Both the position numbers and the translations under genes were made by a program. The notes below the pieces were generated by a model that did no database searches, had not been told where the DNA came from, and was given only the letters and a program-made list of their open reading frames with translations. A stretch of DNA of 64,000 nucleotides, taken from assembly GCA_050949565.1 (NCBI GenBank), contig JBMNFY010000017.1, forward strand, positions 864,001 through 928,000, given 5' to 3'. Shown one piece after another: positions 10,201 to 17,541 of the stretch (the stretch's first letter is position 1; each line of letters starts with the position of its first letter). The stretch is from Kiritimatiellia bacterium. GTDB taxonomy: Bacteria; Verrucomicrobiota; Kiritimatiellia; RFP12; UBA1067.

Positions 10201-11566
10201 ATGGAGTCAAGCCACACGGTATTGATATAGCTGCCGATACCGGGCAGCGGCGGCGTGTCGAGCAACCGCACACCGAAGGAACCGGTGAAGGTGGCGCCGG
10301 GGGTGAGCGTCGGGTAGTTCGTCCAGACCACCGCCGGGAAGGGCTCGCCGCCGGCCGGCGGCGTGTAGGCGGGTACATAAAAGCCACCTGCGGGCGAGAT
10401 GTCCACCACCGGGATGTCTGTCCCGCCAAGATTGGGATCGATCTTACCCATGAGGTCGGAGAGAGGTTGTCATAGACAACGACGCCGTACATCGTCTCGC
10501 GGCCCTCGCTGACGTAGCTATTGCGGGCCTCAAGGGTGAAGCGGTTGACCGTGCCGGGGAAGGTGTAGTTGCCGGAGGCGAGCGTGTAGATGCCCGCGCC
10601 CGTGCGCTTGGTCACGCCGGGGGCGGGAACACTCTTGATCAGCGTATTGACTGTGGCGGATTTCACCGTGTCGGCGTTGGCGGCCGACGCAGTGGCGCTA
10701 TTGGCGGTCTTGGAATCGTTGAGCGTGCCGTTCTTCGTGCGGACCGCGAACCAGAGCGTGTCGGTCGTGCCCTCGGGCTTGGTGCCGAGGTCCCAGTAGA
10801 CGCTACGGGCGGGGATCTCCACGCCGTGTACCGTTACCGGCACCGCCGTGTAGGTGCCGCCCTGCGAAGCTTCAACAAAGGAGACATCATCGTTCTGGCC
10901 GTGCTCGGCCGGGTAGGTCATCGTGCCGTCAGCCTTGAGCGGCAGTTTATCCCAGACGACGAGGTTCTTGGCCTCAACATAGCTAACCGAATAACGGATG
11001 CGGTAGACGATGCGCTGGCCCGCCAGCACCGACTCGGGAGCCGATTTGTCGAGCAGCAACACAGAAACCGGGGTTCAGGAGACCGCAAGGTCAGAGACCA
11101 TCGGCGACACAACACCTTCATTAAGGGCCACGATGACCGCCAATTCCGGGTGCGCCACGGGATCAATCTCCGCCAGCGATACCTCGCCGTCGTAGTCGAC
11201 AGGGCCGAGGACGGTCGCGCGGGTGAGCGCATTGATCACGCTAACCCGAACATCGGCAGGAGCCGACCAAGTACCGGAGAGCTTGAGCGTCCCCCAAGCG
11301 CCGAAGCTCGGCGGCTTGATGCGCACCGTCTCGTAATTGCCCGAGGTCTGGCCCGCGATCAGCTTGACGACGCCGGAGGCGGAGACGACGGTCGTTCCGG
11401 AGGTGGTGCGCACGCCCAGATTGTCATTGTACGTGTCCGTCCATGTGCCAGCATTGTTGTCGATGACCGGCGCGGCTATAGCGGCGCCGCCTAATGACAG
11501 AACCGCGGTCAGCGTAGCGAGCAAGCTGAAACCGCGGCAGATGAAACCCTTGGTCATTGCATGCAC
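1294..11566 (-). pseudogene. Giant (~3400 aa) secreted adhesin-like protein: DUF11 repeats, FG-GAP repeats, SdrD-B-like, choice-of-anchor A, TGDTG linker, CARDB, C-terminal sorting-like domain; split by one in-frame TGA and two frameshifts
   Basis: ORFs 11075-11566, 9992-11062, 5511-10451 and 1294-5589 join into one reading. Signal peptide in first ORF; many K...V..G..F.Y.L...N.G...A..V...D.LP units (DUF11); GDVNGDGVPD (FG-GAP); [10 protein letters not shown]...[11 protein letters not shown] (SdrD-B); [21 protein letters not shown] (choice-of-anchor A). Confidence 0.85.
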
Positions 11567-11800
11567 TATCGTCGTCCCTTTCTAAGCTACCGGGGTACAT
11601 CCCACCCATACCGCGACCGCACGTCCGCAACAAGCGGGATGGCATTACCACAGCACCTGAAAATTGATACACTCCGGGCGTGCCAGTAAGGTTTACATGA
11701 AAACAAAACCTTTTCCGCCCTCGAATGCGACATTTTATAGCCGATTTTACCCCCAGAAGTCAAGTGAAGTCCCGGATTTCCTAAATTTTCACACTCACTC

Positions 11801-11829
11801 TTGACCAACAACCATCCATGTGTTACGTT
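11801..11829 (+). promoter_or_regulatory. sigma70-type promoter TTGACC-N17-TACGTT of the TonB receptor operon
   Basis: TTGACC at 11801-11806, TACGTT at 11824-11829, about 55 nt upstream of ATG 11884. Confidence 0.65.
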
Positions 11830-11846
11830 TTTACAAATCGTAACAC
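11820..11846. promoter_or_regulatory. Palindromic operator GTGTTAC-N13-GTAACAC, NikR-type
   Basis: Perfect inverted repeat overlapping the -10 box; matches the deltaproteobacterial-type NikR consensus as recalled. Confidence 0.75.
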
Positions 11847-11883
11847 CAGCAACTTCACAGTAAGCCATGCGAGGGTAGATCAC

Positions 11884-13812
11884 ATGACACTTCGGAAGCT
11901 CAGAAACCCGCTGTTCGCGGTACTCGGTACGGGCCTTTTGTCAGCAACAGCCCAGACGACAACCAACAGTGCGGACGCCGCGCGCGCCCCCGCATCGGAG
12001 ATTGAGGTTGAAGTGATAGCATCACCTATCACGCAGTTTGAAGAGACCACCCTCGACGGCGCGAACCGCGTGGTCGTGGGGCGCGACCAGCTTGATCGCC
12101 TGAGCGCCACCGACCTGCCGACTGCCCTGCGCCAAGTGCCCGGTGTCTCGATCTCGCGCTACAGCCCGGTCGGCGCCTATGGTGGCGCACAGGGCGGATC
12201 GGTCTACATCCGCGGAGCGGGCACGGCCCGGCCCGGCGGCGAGGTCCGGATCTATAGCGACGGCGTACCGCGTGAATCCGGCGTCTGGTCGCATCCGTTG
12301 ATGGATATCGTACCCATTGATTTCGCCGAACGCATCACCGTCGCCAAAAACCCGCAGCCGCAGCATTACGCCGGTACCTTCGGCGCGGTGGATGTCGAGA
12401 CCCGCAGGCGGCAGACCGAGGGGCACGAAGCCGAATTGTCCGCCGCTTACGGCCGTTTCAACACGCTGATCAGTTCTGCCGCAGCCGGTGGCAAGATCGA
12501 CCTGTTCGATTATTACGCCGGGGCCGCCTACAAATACTCGGAGGGCGCGCGCAAACATGGCGAGGCCGAACTGCGTAGCGCCTTTGCGCGGGCCGGATGG
12601 GATCTCTCCCCACATGACCATCTCTCGTACATCTTCCTGGGCACCGACAACTGGGTGCGTGATCCCGGCCCGAAAGGCGGTCCGAGGCCGCAACGCGACC
12701 AGTTCAACACCGAGACCCTGACCCACGCGGTTCGCCTCGAAACCCAACGCGACCGCATCCGCGGATACTCCTTGCTTTACTACGAGGACGGCGAAATCCG
12801 CTGGCGCAAGGACCATCTGTCCGACGGCGTCCTGACCTCACCGGCCGGCTTTTCCAACACCGACTGGGACAACTACGGATTCCGTTCGTCGTATGACATT
12901 CTGTTCGACCGCCTCACGCTCACCGGATCGCTGGACTCATGGTCCGAAGGCGGCGAGACCTGGAACATCCGTTCATTCGACAACCGGCGGGTCTGGGGCT
13001 ATAACGGACGTTTCTTCACCACGGCCCCCTACCTCGGTGCACGTTATGATTTTGACGTAGGCCACGACTGGACCCTCACGCCTTCGGTCGGCGCACGCCA
13101 CTACATCAGCACTGAGTTCGACGACAAAACCGCGCCCTGCGCCGCATTGACCCTCTCCCGCGAAAAGTTGAACATCTTTGTCTCCCACGCACGAGGCGTC
13201 CACTACCCCGGCGTTTACATCCGCGGTGTCTCACCCTCCACCTGGCGCACGCTGGAACCCGAAACGCTACACACCACCGAAGCGGGCGTCCAAATGGGAA
13301 TCGGTGAGCAGGCGGCGTTGCACACCACGTTGTTCCATACCGAGGTCGAAGACCGCATGGACTCAACCTCGGCCGGTTACTTCAACACCGGGGACATGAA
13401 GGCACAGGGAGCGGAAGTTTCGCTGCATCTCTATCCGCGCAATGACCTCTCATTTTTCGTGGGCGGCACCTACACCGATCCTGACACCCATCCGGTCTCG
13501 CGCATGCCGGAAGTCACCTTCACGGCGGGTAGCTCCTACCGCATCACGCACGCGCTCCGCTGGGATTTGGATGCCCAATACGTTACCACGCAGTACGCCT
13601 ACAGCATGCGCTCGATCAACCCTGACCTGGAAAAGCTCGATGACTATCTGGCCGTCAACACGCGCCTCTCGCTGGACCTGCGTGCGCTTTGCCCGCTGGA
13701 CGGCGAATTGTATGTGGCTGTCGAGAATCTGACCAACCGGCATTATGAATATTTTCCGGGCTACCCGATGCCGGGCATCATGTGGTACACTGGCATGAAG
13801 GTGAAGTTCTGA
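11884..13812 (+). CDS. TonB-dependent receptor
   Basis: Signal peptide, TonB-box-like EVEVIAS, plug motif LRQVPGV..IRG, C-terminal VENLTN..Y....GYPMPG...GMKVKF. Confidence 0.92.
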   Translation: MTLRKLRNPLFAVLGTGLLSATAQTTTNSADAARAPASEIEVEVIASPITQFEETTLDGANRVVVGRDQLDRLSATDLPTALRQVPGVSISRYSPVGAYGGAQGGSVYIRGAGTARPGGEVRIYSDGVPRESGVWSHPLMDIVPIDFAERITVAKNPQPQHYAGTFGAVDVETRRRQTEGHEAELSAAYGRFNTLISSAAAGGKIDLFDYYAGAAYKYSEGARKHGEAELRSAFARAGWDLSPHDHLSYIFLGTDNWVRDPGPKGGPRPQRDQFNTETLTHAVRLETQRDRIRGYSLLYYEDGEIRWRKDHLSDGVLTSPAGFSNTDWDNYGFRSSYDILFDRLTLTGSLDSWSEGGETWNIRSFDNRRVWGYNGRFFTTAPYLGARYDFDVGHDWTLTPSVGARHYISTEFDDKTAPCAALTLSREKLNIFVSHARGVHYPGVYIRGVSPSTWRTLEPETLHTTEAGVQMGIGEQAALHTTLFHTEVEDRMDSTSAGYFNTGDMKAQGAEVSLHLYPRNDLSFFVGGTYTDPDTHPVSRMPEVTFTAGSSYRITHALRWDLDAQYVTTQYAYSMRSINPDLEKLDDYLAVNTRLSLDLRALCPLDGELYVAVENLTNRHYEYFPGYPMPGIMWYTGMKVKF

Positions 13813-13880
13813 TGCGGGCGGAGCCCGCAACCCAGTTTAATCTCACACAAAGGCACAAAGGACACAAAGTTTTTTCACAA

Positions 13881-13981
13881 GAGGCTCTTACAAAACCCCT
13901 TGATTGCAGGTGTGGCACGGGCATCTTGCCCGTGTTTCATGGGCGAGACGCCCATGTCACGAGGGATTTTGCAAGCGCCTC
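13881..13981. mobile_element. ~100-bp MITE (TIR GAGGCwCTTrCAAAA) containing a REP doublet; 4-bp TSD ACAA
   Basis: acaa|GAGGCTCTTACAAAA...TTTTGCAAGCGCCTC|acaa; nested in an ACACAAAGGCACAAAG...GTGCCTTCGTGTGAG repeat. Confidence 0.75.
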
Positions 13982-14074
13982 ACAAATCCTATTCCCTTAG
14001 TGGCCTTCGTGCCTTCGTGTGAGGAACAATTTGCTCAATTTCGATGGAAGCTGGAGCCTGAGACCAGAAACCAC

Positions 14075-14623
14075 ATGATTCGGCCTAGAGAATATGCCTT
14101 TTGCGGCCTGTTCGGTGCGGCGGCGCTGTTGCTACCGACGCTTTTCCATCTGCTACATCTGGGGCATGTCTTCATGCCGATGTATCTGCCGCTGGTGGCG
14201 CTGGCTTTTTTTGTGCGCCCCGCTGCATCCGCGTTGACAGCTCTGCTGGTACCGTTGCTCTCCGGCGCGGTCACCGGCATGCCGCCCTTCATGCCGCCGG
14301 TCGCCCCGGTGATGGCGCTGGAACTGGCACTGATGGCGCTGATGATCGGCGTGTTGCGCCAAGCGGTGCCGCGCATGCCGGTCTGGTGTCTGCTCGCGCT
14401 CGCGTTGGCTGTCGGACGGATTGTGAACGCATCCCTGTTCTATGTCGCCGCGCGCATCTTGGAGTTGCCAGCCGGTTTCGTGGCCGGCATCTCGCTGCTC
14501 AGCGGCTGGCCGGGTCTGCTGCTAATGTTGGCGGTCATCCCCGGCCTCGTGCATGCCACCGGTCACGCGCAGTACCATATCCATGACCCCGGAGCCTCCC
14601 ATGACGAATCCCCTGTGTCCTGA
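14075..14623 (+). CDS. ECF transporter S component
   Basis: Highly hydrophobic; FHLLHLGHVFMPMYLP and TGMPP motifs typical of an ECF S family; upstream of T and A components. Confidence 0.8.
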   Translation: MIRPREYAFCGLFGAAALLLPTLFHLLHLGHVFMPMYLPLVALAFFVRPAASALTALLVPLLSGAVTGMPPFMPPVAPVMALELALMALMIGVLRQAVPRMPVWCLLALALAVGRIVNASLFYVAARILELPAGFVAGISLLSGWPGLLLMLAVIPGLVHATGHAQYHIHDPGASHDESPVS

Positions 14624-15227
14624 TCCGCGACAACCCTTTTTCGACAGTATCGCCGACGCCTGGGACGGCTGGCACGACCTGCCCGCGCTCAACGCGCAAC
14701 TGGCCGATTTCTTTGAGCACGTCGGCGTGCAACCGGACGAGTCGGTCGTGGATGTCGGCTGCGGCACCGGCAACCTGACGCTCGCCCTGCTCGCGTGGCT
14801 CGGCCCGCAAGGTCGAGTGACCGCGCTCGACATCTCGCCGGCCATGTTGGCGCGCGCCGCGCGCAAGACGACCGACGCGCGCGTGACGTGGCACGAGGCA
14901 CCGGCCGACCGCATACCGCTGCCAAACGGAACATGCGACCGCATCCTCTGCTTTTCCGCCTGGCCTCATTTCGACCGTCTGGACCACGTAGTCGCCGAGT
15001 TCAGCCGCGTGCTGTGTCCCGGCGGTCAGGCCCACATCCTGCATCTGATCTCCAAGGAAGAGGTCAACCGCATTCACAGCGAGGCCCATCCCACCGTCCG
15101 CGCCGACCGCCTGCCGCCGGTTGACGATGTGGCCGATCTCTTCCGCGCGAACAGCTTTACGGTGATCGAGACCGAAGACAACGCATCGCGTTACCTGCTG
15201 AGCGTGCGCAAGGAGCCGAGAGCATGA
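14601..15227 (+). CDS. Class I SAM-dependent methyltransferase
   Basis: VVDVGCGTG, LDISPAML, RVLCPGG motifs; GGAG RBS before ATG 14601. Confidence 0.9.
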   Translation: MTNPLCPDPRQPFFDSIADAWDGWHDLPALNAQLADFFEHVGVQPDESVVDVGCGTGNLTLALLAWLGPQGRVTALDISPAMLARAARKTTDARVTWHEAPADRIPLPNGTCDRILCFSAWPHFDRLDHVVAEFSRVLCPGGQAHILHLISKEEVNRIHSEAHPTVRADRLPPVDDVADLFRANSFTVIETEDNASRYLLSVRKEPRA

Positions 15228-15976
15228 TCGCTTTCAGCGAGGCTTTTGGTGGCGGCAACGGCGCGGCGCGGCGGCTTGCCCCCGCCGTGCGCCTGTTGTG
15301 CGGCGCGTGGGTCTTTGTCTGCTGCGCGGTCGTCCCGCTCGATTCGCCGGCGGGTATCGCGCTCTTTGTTGTCGCGTGGTTGGCCTGGCTGTTCGGTTGC
15401 GCCATGCCGCCGCGACGGCTTGCCCTGTCGCTGGGCTTCGCCATCTGCCTCTTCACGCCACTATTGCTGCTGGCACCTGTTGCGTACTGGAACGGCTCCG
15501 CCGCAACGTGGACCGGGGCGTTGCGGGCACCGCTACGTGTCGGTGTGCGCGGCGTGGCGGGCGTCACGATAGGCGTCGGCGCGCTATCGCTGATCCCGCT
15601 CTCCGAGTTTGCCGACGCGGTGGCGGCCTTGCCCTTGCCGCGCGCCGTAACCAGCCTGCTGGTGCAGATCGTGCATCAGGCCGCGTTGCTGACCGACGAA
15701 ACGCGACGCATGGCCGATGCCCTGCGGGTGCGCGGCGTAGCCTCAGCGCGACTCGCCGTTCGGCTGCGCGTGGTGACAACGTTCCCGGCCAGTTGGTTGA
15801 CGCGGCTGGCGCTGCGTGCCGCGCGCGCAGGCGATGCGATGGAGGTGCGCGGTTTTGACGGCCTGCCGCCGAGTGTGCCGCCCCTGACTTTTTCCCGTTC
15901 CGACTGGCTGGCACTGACCGCTACCACCCTGCTCGCCGTGGGTGCGCTTGTGCTGCGCTGGAGGGGGTTCGCATGA
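15224..15976 (+). CDS. ECF transporter T component (CbiQ/NikQ/EcfT family)
   Basis: TM helices plus ALRVRG and AMEVRGF Arg motifs; ATGA overlaps on both sides. Confidence 0.85.
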   Translation: MIAFSEAFGGGNGAARRLAPAVRLLCGAWVFVCCAVVPLDSPAGIALFVVAWLAWLFGCAMPPRRLALSLGFAICLFTPLLLLAPVAYWNGSAATWTGALRAPLRVGVRGVAGVTIGVGALSLIPLSEFADAVAALPLPRAVTSLLVQIVHQAALLTDETRRMADALRVRGVASARLAVRLRVVTTFPASWLTRLALRAARAGDAMEVRGFDGLPPSVPPLTFSRSDWLALTATTLLAVGALVLRWRGFA

Positions 15977-16677
15977 GCGCGGCACTCGCCATCCATGATC
16001 TGCGTGTCGCCTATCGTGCGGGCGACCCCGAAGTTCTGCGCGGCATCTCCCTGACGCTCGAACCCGGCGAACACTGCGCCCTGCTGGGGCTCAACGGCTC
16101 GGGCAAGACCACGTTGCTGCGTGCGGTCGCGGGGTTGCAGCCCTTCAATGGAACGATCACGGTCTGCGGCATCGCGCTCCAGCGCGAGACGGTGCGCGAC
16201 GTGCGCGACCGGATCGGATTTCTCTTCAGCACGCCCGATGACCAGCTCCTGTTTCCGCAGGTGCTGACCGACGTGTCGTTTGCTCTGGAACGAGCCGGTC
16301 GCCCGCAGGCGGAAGCGCGCGAAGCGGCACTTCAGACGTTAGAGGCGCTGGGAATTGCGGCCTACGCCGAGCGCGCGCCGCACACGCTGTCGCAAGGCCA
16401 ACGCCAGCGGGTGGCGTTGGCGGGAGCACTGGTTGCGCAACCGCCGCTGCTGTTGCTGGACGAACCCACCGCCTCGCTGGATCCGGTCGGACGCGATGAA
16501 CTCGCACAGGTGCTGACGCGTCAACCGGCGGCGCTGCTGCTCGCCACGCACGACCTCGCCTTCGCGCGGCAGGTCGCCCGGCGCTTCATCATGCTTGAAG
16601 ACGGAAAGATCACCGCTGACACCGACGCCCCCGCGCACATCGAAGCGGCCTTCGCGCGGGAACGAAGAGTTTTTTGA
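15973..16677 (+). CDS. ECF transporter ATPase (CbiO/NikO/EcfA family)
   Basis: Walker A GLNGSGKT, PDDQL Q-helix, LSQGQRQR signature, LLLDEPT, THD. Confidence 0.92.
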   Translation: MSAALAIHDLRVAYRAGDPEVLRGISLTLEPGEHCALLGLNGSGKTTLLRAVAGLQPFNGTITVCGIALQRETVRDVRDRIGFLFSTPDDQLLFPQVLTDVSFALERAGRPQAEAREAALQTLEALGIAAYAERAPHTLSQGQRQRVALAGALVAQPPLLLLDEPTASLDPVGRDELAQVLTRQPAALLLATHDLAFARQVARRFIMLEDGKITADTDAPAHIEAAFARERRVF

Positions 16678-16679
16678 TT

Positions 16680-16947
16680 TTAACGTAGAGGTGCAGAGAC
16701 GCAGAATTTTTTGCGGGGGCTGCCGGGACTGCGGGTACTGTGGGCGGCGTTCACGCCGCCGGTCAAGCAGACGCTTGACCCTCCCGGCGCTTCGCGAGCC
16801 TGACGGAAGTATCTGGAGTGCGGCGGCAAGCGGTATTCCGCGCGACGCCGCTTTTTGGGCAGGAGTGCAGCGGAGGGCGGCGCGTAAAAGCGGTGCCGCG
16901 ACCCGCGCACAGCGCGGCTCTCTTACTTCCGCCCTGCCCGCTATTCA
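16680..16947. repeat. Composite intergenic repeat mosaic (REP-like palindromes and short tandem repeats)
   Basis: GGTCAAGCAGACGCTTGACCCTCCC and GGAGTGCGGCGGCAAGCG..CGCCGCTTT modules recur at 18399-18583 and 43088-43230. Confidence 0.8.
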
Positions 16948-17541
16948 CTATTCACTTCTTTTGTCATTTTGAAGTTTTAACTTGCGCATGAAATCCAAAC
17001 TCTCTTCAGTTGATTGACACTCCTTGAAAAGAATGAGCATCGCGCAGTCAACATCTGCCAAGCTATGTTCGACTTTTGCCGCCTGATTAAAGAACGGCAC
17101 GGGGTCTTTCGGCTGAGAGCTAAAGGCTCCCGCCAGCACCTTCATCCCTTTGTATTCTGTTGCTAGGTGGATTGTAGCCTTATACTCCCCTTTTGCCTGC
17201 CCACCCGTAAAAACGAATTTCTCAAAAATCGGCTCCGCCTTGAAATCGTGCAACGCATCGCCAGCCACTAAAGCATATCCATGCTGGCCGTTTCTTTGCC
17301 CCCATACAAGCTCAAATGTCGCATCCTTCAGAGGCGAGAGATGCCCATTGCTCAAGCATTCAAATTTGACGAACTGCCCTTTTTCGATGCGTGCAAGCGC
17401 ATAGACATGGATGACCTTCCGCTTGACCGCTGTTAACGTGGTTCCCGCTGACCTTAACCCCAAAAACGCTCTTACTCCCCGATCTGGACCAGCCATCGTT
17501 GACGCGGCAAAAAAGAGTGCGATAAGTACAAGTGTCTTCAT
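16948..17541 (-). CDS. Hypothetical exported protein (lower GC, cassette-like)
   Basis: Signal peptide MKTLVLIALFFAASTMA; ATGA overlap with upstream ORF. Confidence 0.7.
   Translation of the reverse strand: MKTLVLIALFFAASTMAGPDRGVRAFLGLRSAGTTLTAVKRKVIHVYALARIEKGQFVKFECLSNGHLSPLKDATFELVWGQRNGQHGYALVAGDALHDFKAEPIFEKFVFTGGQAKGEYKATIHLATEYKGMKVLAGAFSSQPKDPVPFFNQAAKVEHSLADVDCAMLILFKECQSTEESLDFMRKLKLQNDKRSE

Follow-up and report, generated by a model that had tools for sequence, protein, structure and literature searches.

A candidate NikR-controlled nickel acquisition operon combining a TonB-dependent receptor, an ECF importer with a new S component and a SAM-dependent methyltransferase

Nickel importers of the ECF type (group I), namely NikMNQO, Nik(MN)QO and NikKMLQO, have been predicted to stand under the control of NikR in delta-proteobacteria, according to a comparative genomics study (PMC545781); there, GTGTTAC-N13/14-GTAACAC was put forward as the NikR signal of these bacteria, as a prediction and not as measured binding. 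At the outer membrane, NikR-regulated TonB-dependent nickel receptors are represented by FrpB4 and FecA3 of Helicobacter pylori and, as predictions, by Bll6948 and Daro_3944, as listed in PMC11247825.

We analyzed a stretch of 64,000 nucleotides from a Kiritimatiellia bacterium (hereafter, the window), in which five genes on the plus strand encode, in this order, a TonB-dependent receptor, an ECF S component, a SAM methyltransferase, a CbiQ-type T component, and one ABC ATPase. By profile matches, the first gene (11884..13812) codes for an outer-membrane receptor of 642 aa with a signal peptide and a Plug domain (52.6 bits), the barrel region also matching TonB receptor models; its orthologues at two related loci (L073 and L064) carry both PF07715 (Plug) and PF00593 (beta-barrel). 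The best named partial matches of the receptor, all far below the cut-offs, include B12 and siderophore receptors. The S gene (14075..14623) is followed by the methyltransferase gene, whose likely start is 14601 (14601..15227) and whose longest open reading frame begins at 14553, then by the gene for a T component of the CbiQ family (15224..15976; PF02361, 45.9 bits) and that for the A component, a single CbiO-like ABC ATPase (15973..16677) identified by profile matches and scoring 162.9 bits against TIGR01166 (cbiO), under the cut-off of 211.8. As stated in the preliminary description, the methyltransferase is embedded with overlapping reading frames: its gene overlaps the 3' end of the S gene by 23 nt (start 14601) or 71 nt (14553) and the T gene by 4 nt, and the T and ATPase genes likewise overlap by 4 nt. 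A terminator-like hairpin with a T run, called by consensus match only, lies at the 3' end of the ATPase gene (16650..16677, plus strand). None of the five proteins matched the PDGLE profile, and Rfam returned no family between 10500 and 17500 at E up to 1, in agreement with the earlier remark that no cobalamin riboswitch was to be recognized. Contigs from four digester RNA libraries cover the S, methyltransferase, and T genes (14285-15914) and the T and A genes (15368-16585) without mismatches or nearly so; such contigs may include DNA and are no proof that the genes are transcribed together. None of the RNA-library pieces listed spans the receptor-S gap (13813-14074), which folds at -113.7 kcal/mol (z -6.3) and holds a copy of a dispersed repeat of about 100 nt (13881..13982, no strand assigned; 301 BLAST matches in the genome). 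In the relatives, this gap is merely 13-50 nt or the two genes overlap, and the repeat is an insertion, lying outside the system as found there.

Upstream of the receptor gene, a pattern scan of the window located the perfect dyad GTGTTAC-N13-GTAACAC, GTGTTACGTTTTTACAAATCGTAACAC, at 11820..11846 (no strand assigned). It agrees, as initially proposed, with the signal predicted for delta-proteobacterial NikR in PMC545781, and we annotate it as a predicted NikR-type operator from the pattern match, arm extension, conservation, and this consensus. No second match occurs in the window even when up to 2 mismatches are allowed; the chance expectation is 0.08 per window, with at least one match in 8 of 100 shuffles, and the extended dyad has 12-nt arms that are 92% complementary and spaced by 3 nt. 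A whole-genome scan over 4,659,517 bases found the perfect dyad, with a spacer of N12-15, as a sole copy. Two hexamers read from the sequence, the -35-like TTGACC (11801..11806, plus strand) and the -10-like TACGTT (11824..11829, plus strand), are separated by 17 nt and constitute a predicted promoter; by these coordinates, the -10 is therefore covered by the left dyad arm, the very arrangement claimed in the preliminary description. TACGTT agrees with TATAAT at 3 of 6 positions, and a consensus promoter scan did not include TTGACC-N17-TACGTT among its calls because of this weak -10. A TTGAC-like hexamer stands 13-14 nt 5' of the dyad in four orthologous upstream regions, and two close orthologues have degenerate sites (GTATTAC-N13-GTATTAC in L013 and a poor right arm in L015).

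The regulator was sought in the same genome and is present: the nikR product matches NikR_C with 100.3 bits (G000, C10:153605-153829). All 21 NikRs in an alignment share its residues H77, H88, H90, and C96, which we take to be nickel ligands equivalent to those of the E. coli protein. A search covering CbiM, NicO, and HupE/UreJ found none of them in this genome (92% complete), which encodes two LarA homologues and LarC, proteins that use or insert nickel. In a sample of 101 genomes from this order, five contain perfect dyads, all five being nikR-positive, and two contain a control pattern. Three of the five dyads lie 5' of the operon described here, and the other two, in the sister genomes G004 and G013, directly 5' of nikR-CbiM-PDGLE-CbiQ-ABC (nikR-nikMNQO) operons; in the genome itself, for which a search for further dyads had initially been proposed, no other perfect one is present. 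CbiM is encoded in 12 of the 16 nikR-positive genomes, and the remaining four (G000, G061, G077, and G048) all possess the present operon, which seems to stand in for NikMNQO where nikR occurs without NikM. From these comparisons, it is very probable that the operon is under the control of NikR through the predicted operator.

Conservation was examined at 80 related loci from many phyla; by record titles, these include Kiritimatiellia, Lentisphaerae, Verrucomicrobia, Planctomycetota, Myxococcota, Acidobacteriota, Fibrobacterota, Bacteroidota, and others. The methyltransferase lies directly 3' of S in 74 loci (fused to it in five of the 74), a same-strand receptor lies 5' of S in 66, and T and A are present in 69 and 66, respectively. 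The nikR gene itself is found within 21 loci. Conservation of the dyad upstream of the orthologous operons was borne out by pairs of NikR-type half-sites with at most 1 mismatch in 25 loci, placed without exception between -371 and -3202 relative to S, as compared with 2 loci for reversed control half-sites. Where 3.3 kb of sequence flank S on both sides (45 loci), the dyad with up to 2 mismatches was detected upstream in 12 and downstream in none, and a control palindrome in none. Combining both signs, nikR or a NikR-type site is present in 36 of the 80 loci, and neither in 44, many of them cut by contig ends. Thus, a link of the operon to nickel is well supported by comparative evidence, and the earlier designation as a nickel-repressed importer is supported on its regulatory side (the NikR site, the presence of nikR, conservation, and nikR within 21 loci), whereas nickel as the cargo is what we infer.

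The predicted S component (182 aa, about six hydrophobic helices) belongs, by profile and family alignment, to a new family. It matches PF12822 (ECF_trnsprt) weakly (16.8 bits; cut-off 30.7), a match precomputed on 8 of the 120 homologues listed; some homologues and S-methyltransferase fusions pass this cut-off, and the Atlas neighbours of S are, every one, named ECF S components. No solved relative was retrieved by sequence or profile search. Peculiar to the family are the invariant motifs FH..HLG..FMPMYLPL and SG..TGMPP, and the residues H25, M34, M36, Y37, M69, and E83 do not vary within it; a His-rich cytoplasmic tail is found in this lineage (window, L020, and L021: 5-6 His). An assignment as NikM/CbiM was rejected, as had been anticipated from the N-terminus, which reads MIRPRE and not Met-His: no match to PF01891 (CbiM) was obtained at E up to 0.01, and hhalign gave a probability of 0.1% against 12 NikM sequences of the same order, in all of which H2 and H67 are invariant.

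The methyltransferase is of class I, matching Methyltransf_25 with 80.7 bits and containing the SAM-binding motif I (DVGCGTG) and the acidic residue after strand 2. In an alignment of 33 methyltransferases, D67, G69, G71, T72, G73, and D93 are invariant, and this full conservation of the SAM-binding motifs points to catalysis. Additional residues, H161, H164, H175, and C133, are invariant or nearly so and specific to the family. Of the named families compared (UbiE/MenG, BioC, ArsM, DVU_1556, and CpaM), none exceeded its curated NCBIfam cut-off; the best match was DVU_1556, yet with 68 bits against a cut-off of 155, and UbiE (65 against 216), BioC (59 against 185), and the ArsM type (57 against 510) were likewise rejected. 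Six fused S-methyltransferase proteins were found by a homologue search, apart from the per-locus count, and such fusion occurs in several phyla. Conversely, three loci (L081, L092, and L095, one of them with nikR) contain S, T, and A without the methyltransferase, which suggests that the latter is dispensable for transport as such.

Given a receptor and an ECF importer with a new S component and a methyltransferase, all behind a NikR site, the operon most likely represents an undescribed route of nickel acquisition in uncultured anaerobes; the system is undescribed in the literature searched. A role in nickel uptake is likely from its sequence context, and we favor, with moderate confidence, a NikR-repressed nickel acquisition operon spanning both membranes. 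In the predicted mechanism, Ni-NikR would occupy the 27-bp dyad, across both the -10 and the presumptive start site, when nickel is plentiful and block transcription, and the operon would be expressed when nickel is scarce. The TonB-dependent receptor would then carry nickel, probably complexed, over the outer membrane, the new-type S subunit would capture it, and the CbiQ-type T component, together with the single ATPase as a homodimer, would power passage through the inner membrane. The methyltransferase, whose translation is coupled to that of S and which some relatives encode as a fusion with it, may work at the cytoplasmic exit, and its target would most plausibly be the ligand arriving with nickel, a modification of the co-imported ligand that we put forward tentatively. 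To our knowledge, methylation of a free metal ion is impossible. The cargo suggested in the preliminary description, a Ni-chelate or Ni-tetrapyrrole-like ligand modified after uptake, may be inferred from the gene order and the S-methyltransferase fusions. A more elaborate version, which we regard as unlikely, is group translocation, in which an organic nickel complex would enter by way of the receptor and the ECF module and be methylated on its ligand by the S-tethered methyltransferase while emerging; in methanogenic, sulfidic habitats, this complex might be one with a thiolate or a metallophore, or else a Ni-tetrapyrrole released by methanogens. If this were true, ligand methylation would free the nickel and stop the ligand from re-binding it, and the system would become the first case of substrate chemistry built into an ECF importer and, for many uncultured anaerobes, a defined route for scavenging nickel.

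The alternative that survives best, although we consider it somewhat unlikely, is a NikR-repressed importer of free Ni2+, in which S binds the ion directly through its invariant His, Met, and Glu residues and the methyltransferase leaves the cargo untouched, serving to accept or gate nickel in the cytoplasm, or methylating something unrelated. The family-specific His and Cys residues of the methyltransferase, the His-rich tail of S, the three methyltransferase-less loci, and the apparent replacement of NikMNQO, an ion importer, are all consistent with this reading. However, the conserved SAM-binding motifs suggest catalysis, the methyltransferase directly follows S in most loci, with fusions of the two in several phyla, and chelates are a more usual cargo of TonB-dependent receptors than free ions. 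It is very unlikely that the operon is controlled by NikR without being a nickel importer, taking up another compound wanted under nickel shortage or a cobalt- or corrinoid-type cofactor. NikR has been predicted over a non-nickel isoenzyme in Desulfovibrio desulfuricans (PMC545781), B12 and siderophore receptors are among the distant matches of the receptor, and locus L043 adjoins two cobalamin riboswitches, though on the strand opposite to the operon. Against this, neither positions 10500-17500 of the window nor the operon strand of 9 further loci yielded a riboswitch, complementarity with NikM is strict among the nikR-positive genomes of the order, nikR adjoins the operon in 21 loci, and the operator is the sole NikR site of a genome that needs nickel for LarA/LarC. 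Finally, binding of the dyad by another ribbon-helix-helix or dimeric regulator, or a chance palindrome, is highly improbable: a similar palindrome 5' of a ribbon-helix-helix/PIN toxin-antitoxin pair in the same genome (C8:337896) implies that such words may be usable by other ribbon-helix-helix proteins, whereas the low expectation in the window, the single perfect copy per 4.66 Mb, the restriction of all five perfect copies to nikR-positive genomes (two of them directly before nikR-nikMNQO), and the exclusively upstream sites in 25 loci argue for NikR.

Nickel supply is limiting in anaerobic digesters and many anoxic habitats, and the uptake route is unknown for most uncultured lineages. The favored reading, nickel acquisition across both membranes, would provide an orphan ECF S family with a testable substrate class, nickel, for an operon spread over many phyla, and raises the question of why a transporter subunit should be tied to, and in some cases fused with, a SAM methyltransferase.

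The present operon is worth comparing with the systems it resembles. With the NikMNQO-type importers, it shares the operator consensus (as given in PMC545781), a CbiQ-type T component and a single CbiO-type ATPase encoded alongside the S gene, and, within the order, the same dyad that precedes nikR-nikMNQO in sister genomes. However, its S component is unrelated to NikM by sequence and profile and has no N-terminal Met-His; NikN/PDGLE, NikK, and NikL are absent from the operon, the genes for S and T are separated by that for a SAM methyltransferase, and a TonB-dependent receptor leads the operon. The likeness to FrpB4 and FecA3, by their description in PMC11247825, lies in an outer-membrane TonB-dependent receptor, a NikR site, and nickel supply, whereas the operon of the receptor here also encodes a methyltransferase and an inner-membrane ECF importer of its own. 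Vitamin-type ECF S components (PF12822 and relatives) are similar in size and hydrophobic profile, as reflected in the weak PF12822 match and the Atlas neighbours; the match is nevertheless below the cut-off, the present family has its own invariant motifs, and it is served by a dedicated module and a nickel regulator, with no vitamin riboswitch. In metallophore uptake, the ligand may be modified after import, as in the acetylation of imported desferri-ferrichrome in E. coli. The idea is comparable, in that the ligand is altered in the cytoplasm once its chelate has entered via a TonB-dependent receptor and an ABC-type importer, but a methyltransferase, joined to the transporter by coupling or fusion, is the enzyme here.

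The putative NikR operator GTGTTACGTTTTTACAAATCGTAACAC, read at 11820–11846, precedes a five-gene operon (11884–16677) encoding a TonB-dependent receptor (11884–13812; Plug domain, 52.6 bits), a hydrophobic S component of 182 residues (14075–14623; weak match to Pfam ECF_trnsprt, 16.8 bits against a cut-off of 30.7), a class I SAM methyltransferase (METHYLTRANSFERASE; likely start at 14601, longest open reading frame from 14553, end at 15227), a CbiQ-type T component (15224–15976), and a single ABC ATPase of the ECF/CbiO type (A component, 15973–16677). The preliminary description had reported a perfect GTGTTAC-N13-GTAACAC dyad lying over the −10 box of a TTGACC-N17-TACGTT promoter; the coordinates bear this out (TTGACC, 11801–11806; 17-nt spacer; TACGTT, 11824–11829), with the reservation that the predicted −10 box agrees with TATAAT at only three of six positions, and the promoter is absent from the output of a consensus promoter scan. 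Beyond that description, the dyad forms a larger palindrome with 12-nt arms that are 92% complementary and separated by 3 nt. The methyltransferase frame is embedded between its neighbours as had been noticed, overlapping S by 23 or 71 nt according to the start chosen, and 4-nt overlaps join the methyltransferase to T and T to the ATPase. No Rfam family was found in 10500–17500 at E values up to 1, in keeping with the earlier failure to recognise a cobalamin riboswitch, which was accordingly rejected as a regulator of the operon. The dyad, promoter, gene, and RNA-family checks thus confirm the original observation in all its parts.

The receptor and S genes are separated by 262 nt (13813–14074) that carry a dispersed repeat of about 100 nt (core about 13881–13982; 301 BLAST hits across the genome) and fold, at −113.7 kcal/mol (z −6.3), as a long hairpin; because the corresponding gap in relatives is 13–50 nt, or the genes overlap, the repeat is a recent insertion inside the operon. 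Another copy of this repeat adjoins a perfect 26-nt palindrome, GTGTCACATATTC/GAATATGTGACAC, elsewhere in the genome (contig C17, 478308–478333). The sequencing runs containing the stretch are labelled as anaerobic digester, biogas fermenter, bioreactor, or sludge, and six RNA-library runs contain 40–83% of its sampled words. Contigs from four RNA libraries, belonging to four studies, align to the operon almost or entirely without differences, with spans such as 14285–15914 (S, methyltransferase, and T) and 15368–16585 (T and A); they are to be read as presence in RNA libraries, which implies neither a single transcript nor a level and is compatible with DNA carry-over. Depth over the receptor–S gap runs to thousands because of the many copies of the repeat, and none of the contig pieces listed bridges it. 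Just past the dyad, by 7–9 nt, two contigs from different studies start (11853 and 11854) and one from a third study stops (11855); a fourth is continuous from 11774. These ends may mark a transcript 5′ end or an assembly break and are at most a weak hint.

The sequence GTGTTAC-[N13/14]-GTAACAC appears as the NikR consensus of delta-proteobacteria in Rodionov et al. 2004 (PMC545781), matching the assignment made in the preliminary description; as presented there, the consensus is itself a prediction, a product of comparative genomics on nikMQO upstream regions and not of measurement. The dyad is the sole match within the 64-kb window with up to two mismatches allowed (shuffled windows gave a mean of 0.08 matches, with at least one match in 8 of 100 shuffles), and a genome-wide search for further sites, which had been suggested as a check, gave the perfect dyad (spacer 12–15 nt) as a single copy in 4,659,517 bases. 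The nikR gene whose presence had been suggested as a check exists in one copy (locus L001 of this genome, 1342–1755), and an alignment of its product with 20 NikRs from related loci shows invariant H77, H88, H90, and C96, presumably the counterparts of the high-affinity nickel site in E. coli NikR.

In a scan limited to one genome per species, S homologues defined 80 loci (L020–L099), by record title from Kiritimatiellia, Lentisphaerae, Verrucomicrobia, Planctomycetota, Myxococcota, Acidobacteriota, Aminicenantes, Fibrobacterota, Bacteroidota, and others, in which a T component (69/80), an A component (66/80), and a same-family receptor upstream on the same strand (66/80) are common. A nikR gene lies within 21 of the 80 loci, and a NikR-type half-site pair (N13/14, at most one mismatch, any of four orientations) occurs in 25, against two for reversed control half-sites; by our own tally, 36 loci have one or the other, and 44, many of them truncated upstream, have neither. 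All 25 sites lie at −371 to −3202 from the S start, which places them ahead of the first gene of the operon. Among the 45 loci in which 3.3 kb flank S on either side, the dyad (up to two mismatches) occurs upstream in 12 and downstream in none, and a control palindrome in none. The receptor gene may be preceded by two small Cys-rich lipoprotein genes, one found there in 26 and the other in 27 of the 80 loci (L073 5012–6020, L042 4802–6016, and 24–25 further loci, by record title from Myxococcota, Raymondbacteria, and others), with the NikR-type site ahead of the first lipoprotein gene; neither protein matches Pfam or NCBIfam, and a homologue was not found in the genome of the window. Two cobalamin riboswitches adjoin S–methyltransferase–T–A in L043 (5772–5943 and 6466–6651, minus strand), but both lie on the strand opposite to the operon and belong to divergent genes.

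The S subunit belongs to a compact family (775 hits among 8000 candidates scored, 624 representatives in an exhaustive search), whose members are named in the sources 'hypothetical' or 'ECF transporter S component'. In sixteen members the motifs FH..HLG..FMPMYLPL and SG..TGMPP are invariant, as are H25, M34, M36, Y37, T67, M69, E83, R115, and W145. That S is not NikM/CbiM-like, as had been stated, is corroborated by its MIRPRE N-terminus, by the absence of a CbiM Pfam match, and by an hhalign probability of 0.1% against 12 NikM proteins of the same order, which retain H2 and H67; by these comparisons, no relation between S and NikM is detectable. Searches of solved structures by sequence and by profile found no relative of S and no useful match for the receptor, and an Atlas neighbour search returned generic names only. 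The cytoplasmic C-terminal tail of S contains five His in 22 residues (HATGHAQYHIHDPGASHDE; 14555–14620), its coding stretch overlapping the methyltransferase frame; such a tail recurs in the two nearest relatives, L020 (five His) and L021 (six), and is absent from the other 78 loci. Four more distant relatives (P0182, P0240, P0247, and P0239; E 1e-11 to 1e-15) carry fused domains, TM1506/DUF1893 in three proteins and FmdE in one.

What the sequences show is the operator and its position, the nikR gene, nikR near related operons, conservation, and a complementary distribution with NikMNQO; from these features we infer the cargo of the operon and all of the methyltransferase chemistry. Nickel-bound NikR would occupy the dyad, over the −10 box and the start site, and repress transcription; under nickel shortage, the TonB-energised receptor would carry nickel, probably complexed, into the periplasm, from where the S subunit together with T and an ATPase homodimer would import it across the inner membrane. 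The methyltransferase would then act at the cytoplasmic face, the ligand accompanying nickel being its most plausible substrate. This small class I enzyme keeps all SAM-binding motifs invariant across 33 orthologues, with family-specific conservation of W37-D38, R110, C133, W137-P138-H139, H161, H164, R168, N172, and H175. No curated family cut-off was reached, the best matches (DVU_1556, UbiE, BioC, and ArsM-type) all lying far below theirs, and its PDB relatives are generic class I enzymes only. The gene directly follows S in 74 of the 80 loci, and in five of these 74 (L030, L036, L037, L090, and L093, by record title from at least three phyla) S and the methyltransferase are fused in one open reading frame; six of the 13 longer S homologues examined are likewise such fusions. 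The fusions argue for a function of the methyltransferase at the transporter and do not identify the methylated substrate. In a less likely reading, the operon would be an importer of the free ion, with the methyltransferase serving some other role. Methyltransferase-less loci number six: two at contig ends, one with an insertion, and three (L081, L092, and L095) with a plain S–T–A order. In one Lentisphaerae locus (L028, 10577–11278), a second class I methyltransferase gene lies 3′ of the ATPase gene.

A second, unlikely reading retains control by NikR and supposes a cargo other than nickel; the gene content of related genomes counts against it. Perfect dyads occur in five of 101 genomes sampled from the same order (control pattern, two), all five among the 16 nikR-positive genomes. 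In three (that of the window, G061, and G077) the dyad precedes the operon, and in the other two (G004 and G013) it lies directly 5′ of nikR, followed by CbiM, PDGLE, CbiQ, and an ABC ATPase, by gene content a canonical nikR–nikMNQO operon. Sister genomes thus carry this word in front of the textbook nickel importer. A CbiM-family gene is present in 12 of the 16 nikR-positive genomes, and the four lacking one (that of the window, G061, G077, and G048) all have the operon, with both occurring in G020. We give this complementarity without a statistic because the genomes are kin and not independent; it is as expected from non-orthologous replacement of NikMNQO. In the genome of the window, 92.36% complete, CbiM, NicO, and HupE/UreJ were not found, nor were the NiFe hydrogenase large subunit and urease alpha. 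Two LarA-type proteins are encoded, together with LarC, the nickel-inserting enzyme of the nickel-pincer cofactor; nikR and these genes therefore place both a nickel sensor and nickel users in the cell. CODH was rejected as a nickel user, the sole Prismane-family hit being a hydroxylamine reductase/hybrid-cluster protein. Among the importer families searched, the operon is the sole remaining candidate under NikR.

Conservation of the dyad upstream of orthologues, proposed earlier as a check, is borne out, with two groups among the close orthologues. S genes are present in nine of the 101 genomes, including that of the window; six are close (60–100% identity), and receptor–S–methyltransferase order is retained in four of these six on the DNA available. 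The dyad is perfect in G077 (N13) and G061 (N14), each with a TTGAC-like hexamer 13–14 nt upstream, and degenerate in G020 (GTATTAC-N13-GTATTAC) and G048 (left arm perfect, right arm poor). In G026 (93% complete), where the S gene sits on a contig of 3.1 kb, nikR was not matched. The other three of the nine genomes (G044, in L019 4113–7565; G080; G015) have a paralogous form, with S 44–51% identical by one figure and 41–51% by another. There S and the ABC ATPase share an open frame, an apparent fusion, after a receptor-sized ORF; the methyltransferase is missing, and a search for nikR in the three genomes gave no match. Two near-matches to the dyad in the genome of the window were rejected as NikR sites, one inside an ORF of 1154 aa and one, with a 15-nt spacer, placed like an operator before a ribbon-helix-helix/PIN gene pair. 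The latter, the palindrome GTGTTACC-N-GGTAATAC (contig C8, 337896–337924), resembles the NikR half-site and lies immediately 5′ of a small ribbon-helix-helix gene, the next gene being PIN-domain-like; judged by eye from their translations, the two look like a toxin–antitoxin pair. This is a reminder that similar words can be used by other ribbon-helix-helix proteins, and the dyad might by that token not be a NikR target, the weakest reading given its confinement, as a perfect word, to nikR-positive genomes of the order.

The literature searched, which did not extend to RegPrecise and Rodionov et al. 2006, contains no published description of this system. In its way of working, the operon would resemble NikMNQO combined with a NikR-regulated TonB receptor, a kind of receptor for which PMC11247825 lists known examples from Helicobacter and predicted ones from proteobacteria. 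It differs from NikM/CbiM systems in an S subunit that lacks their defining features, and from NikMNQO in an added enzyme, the methyltransferase.
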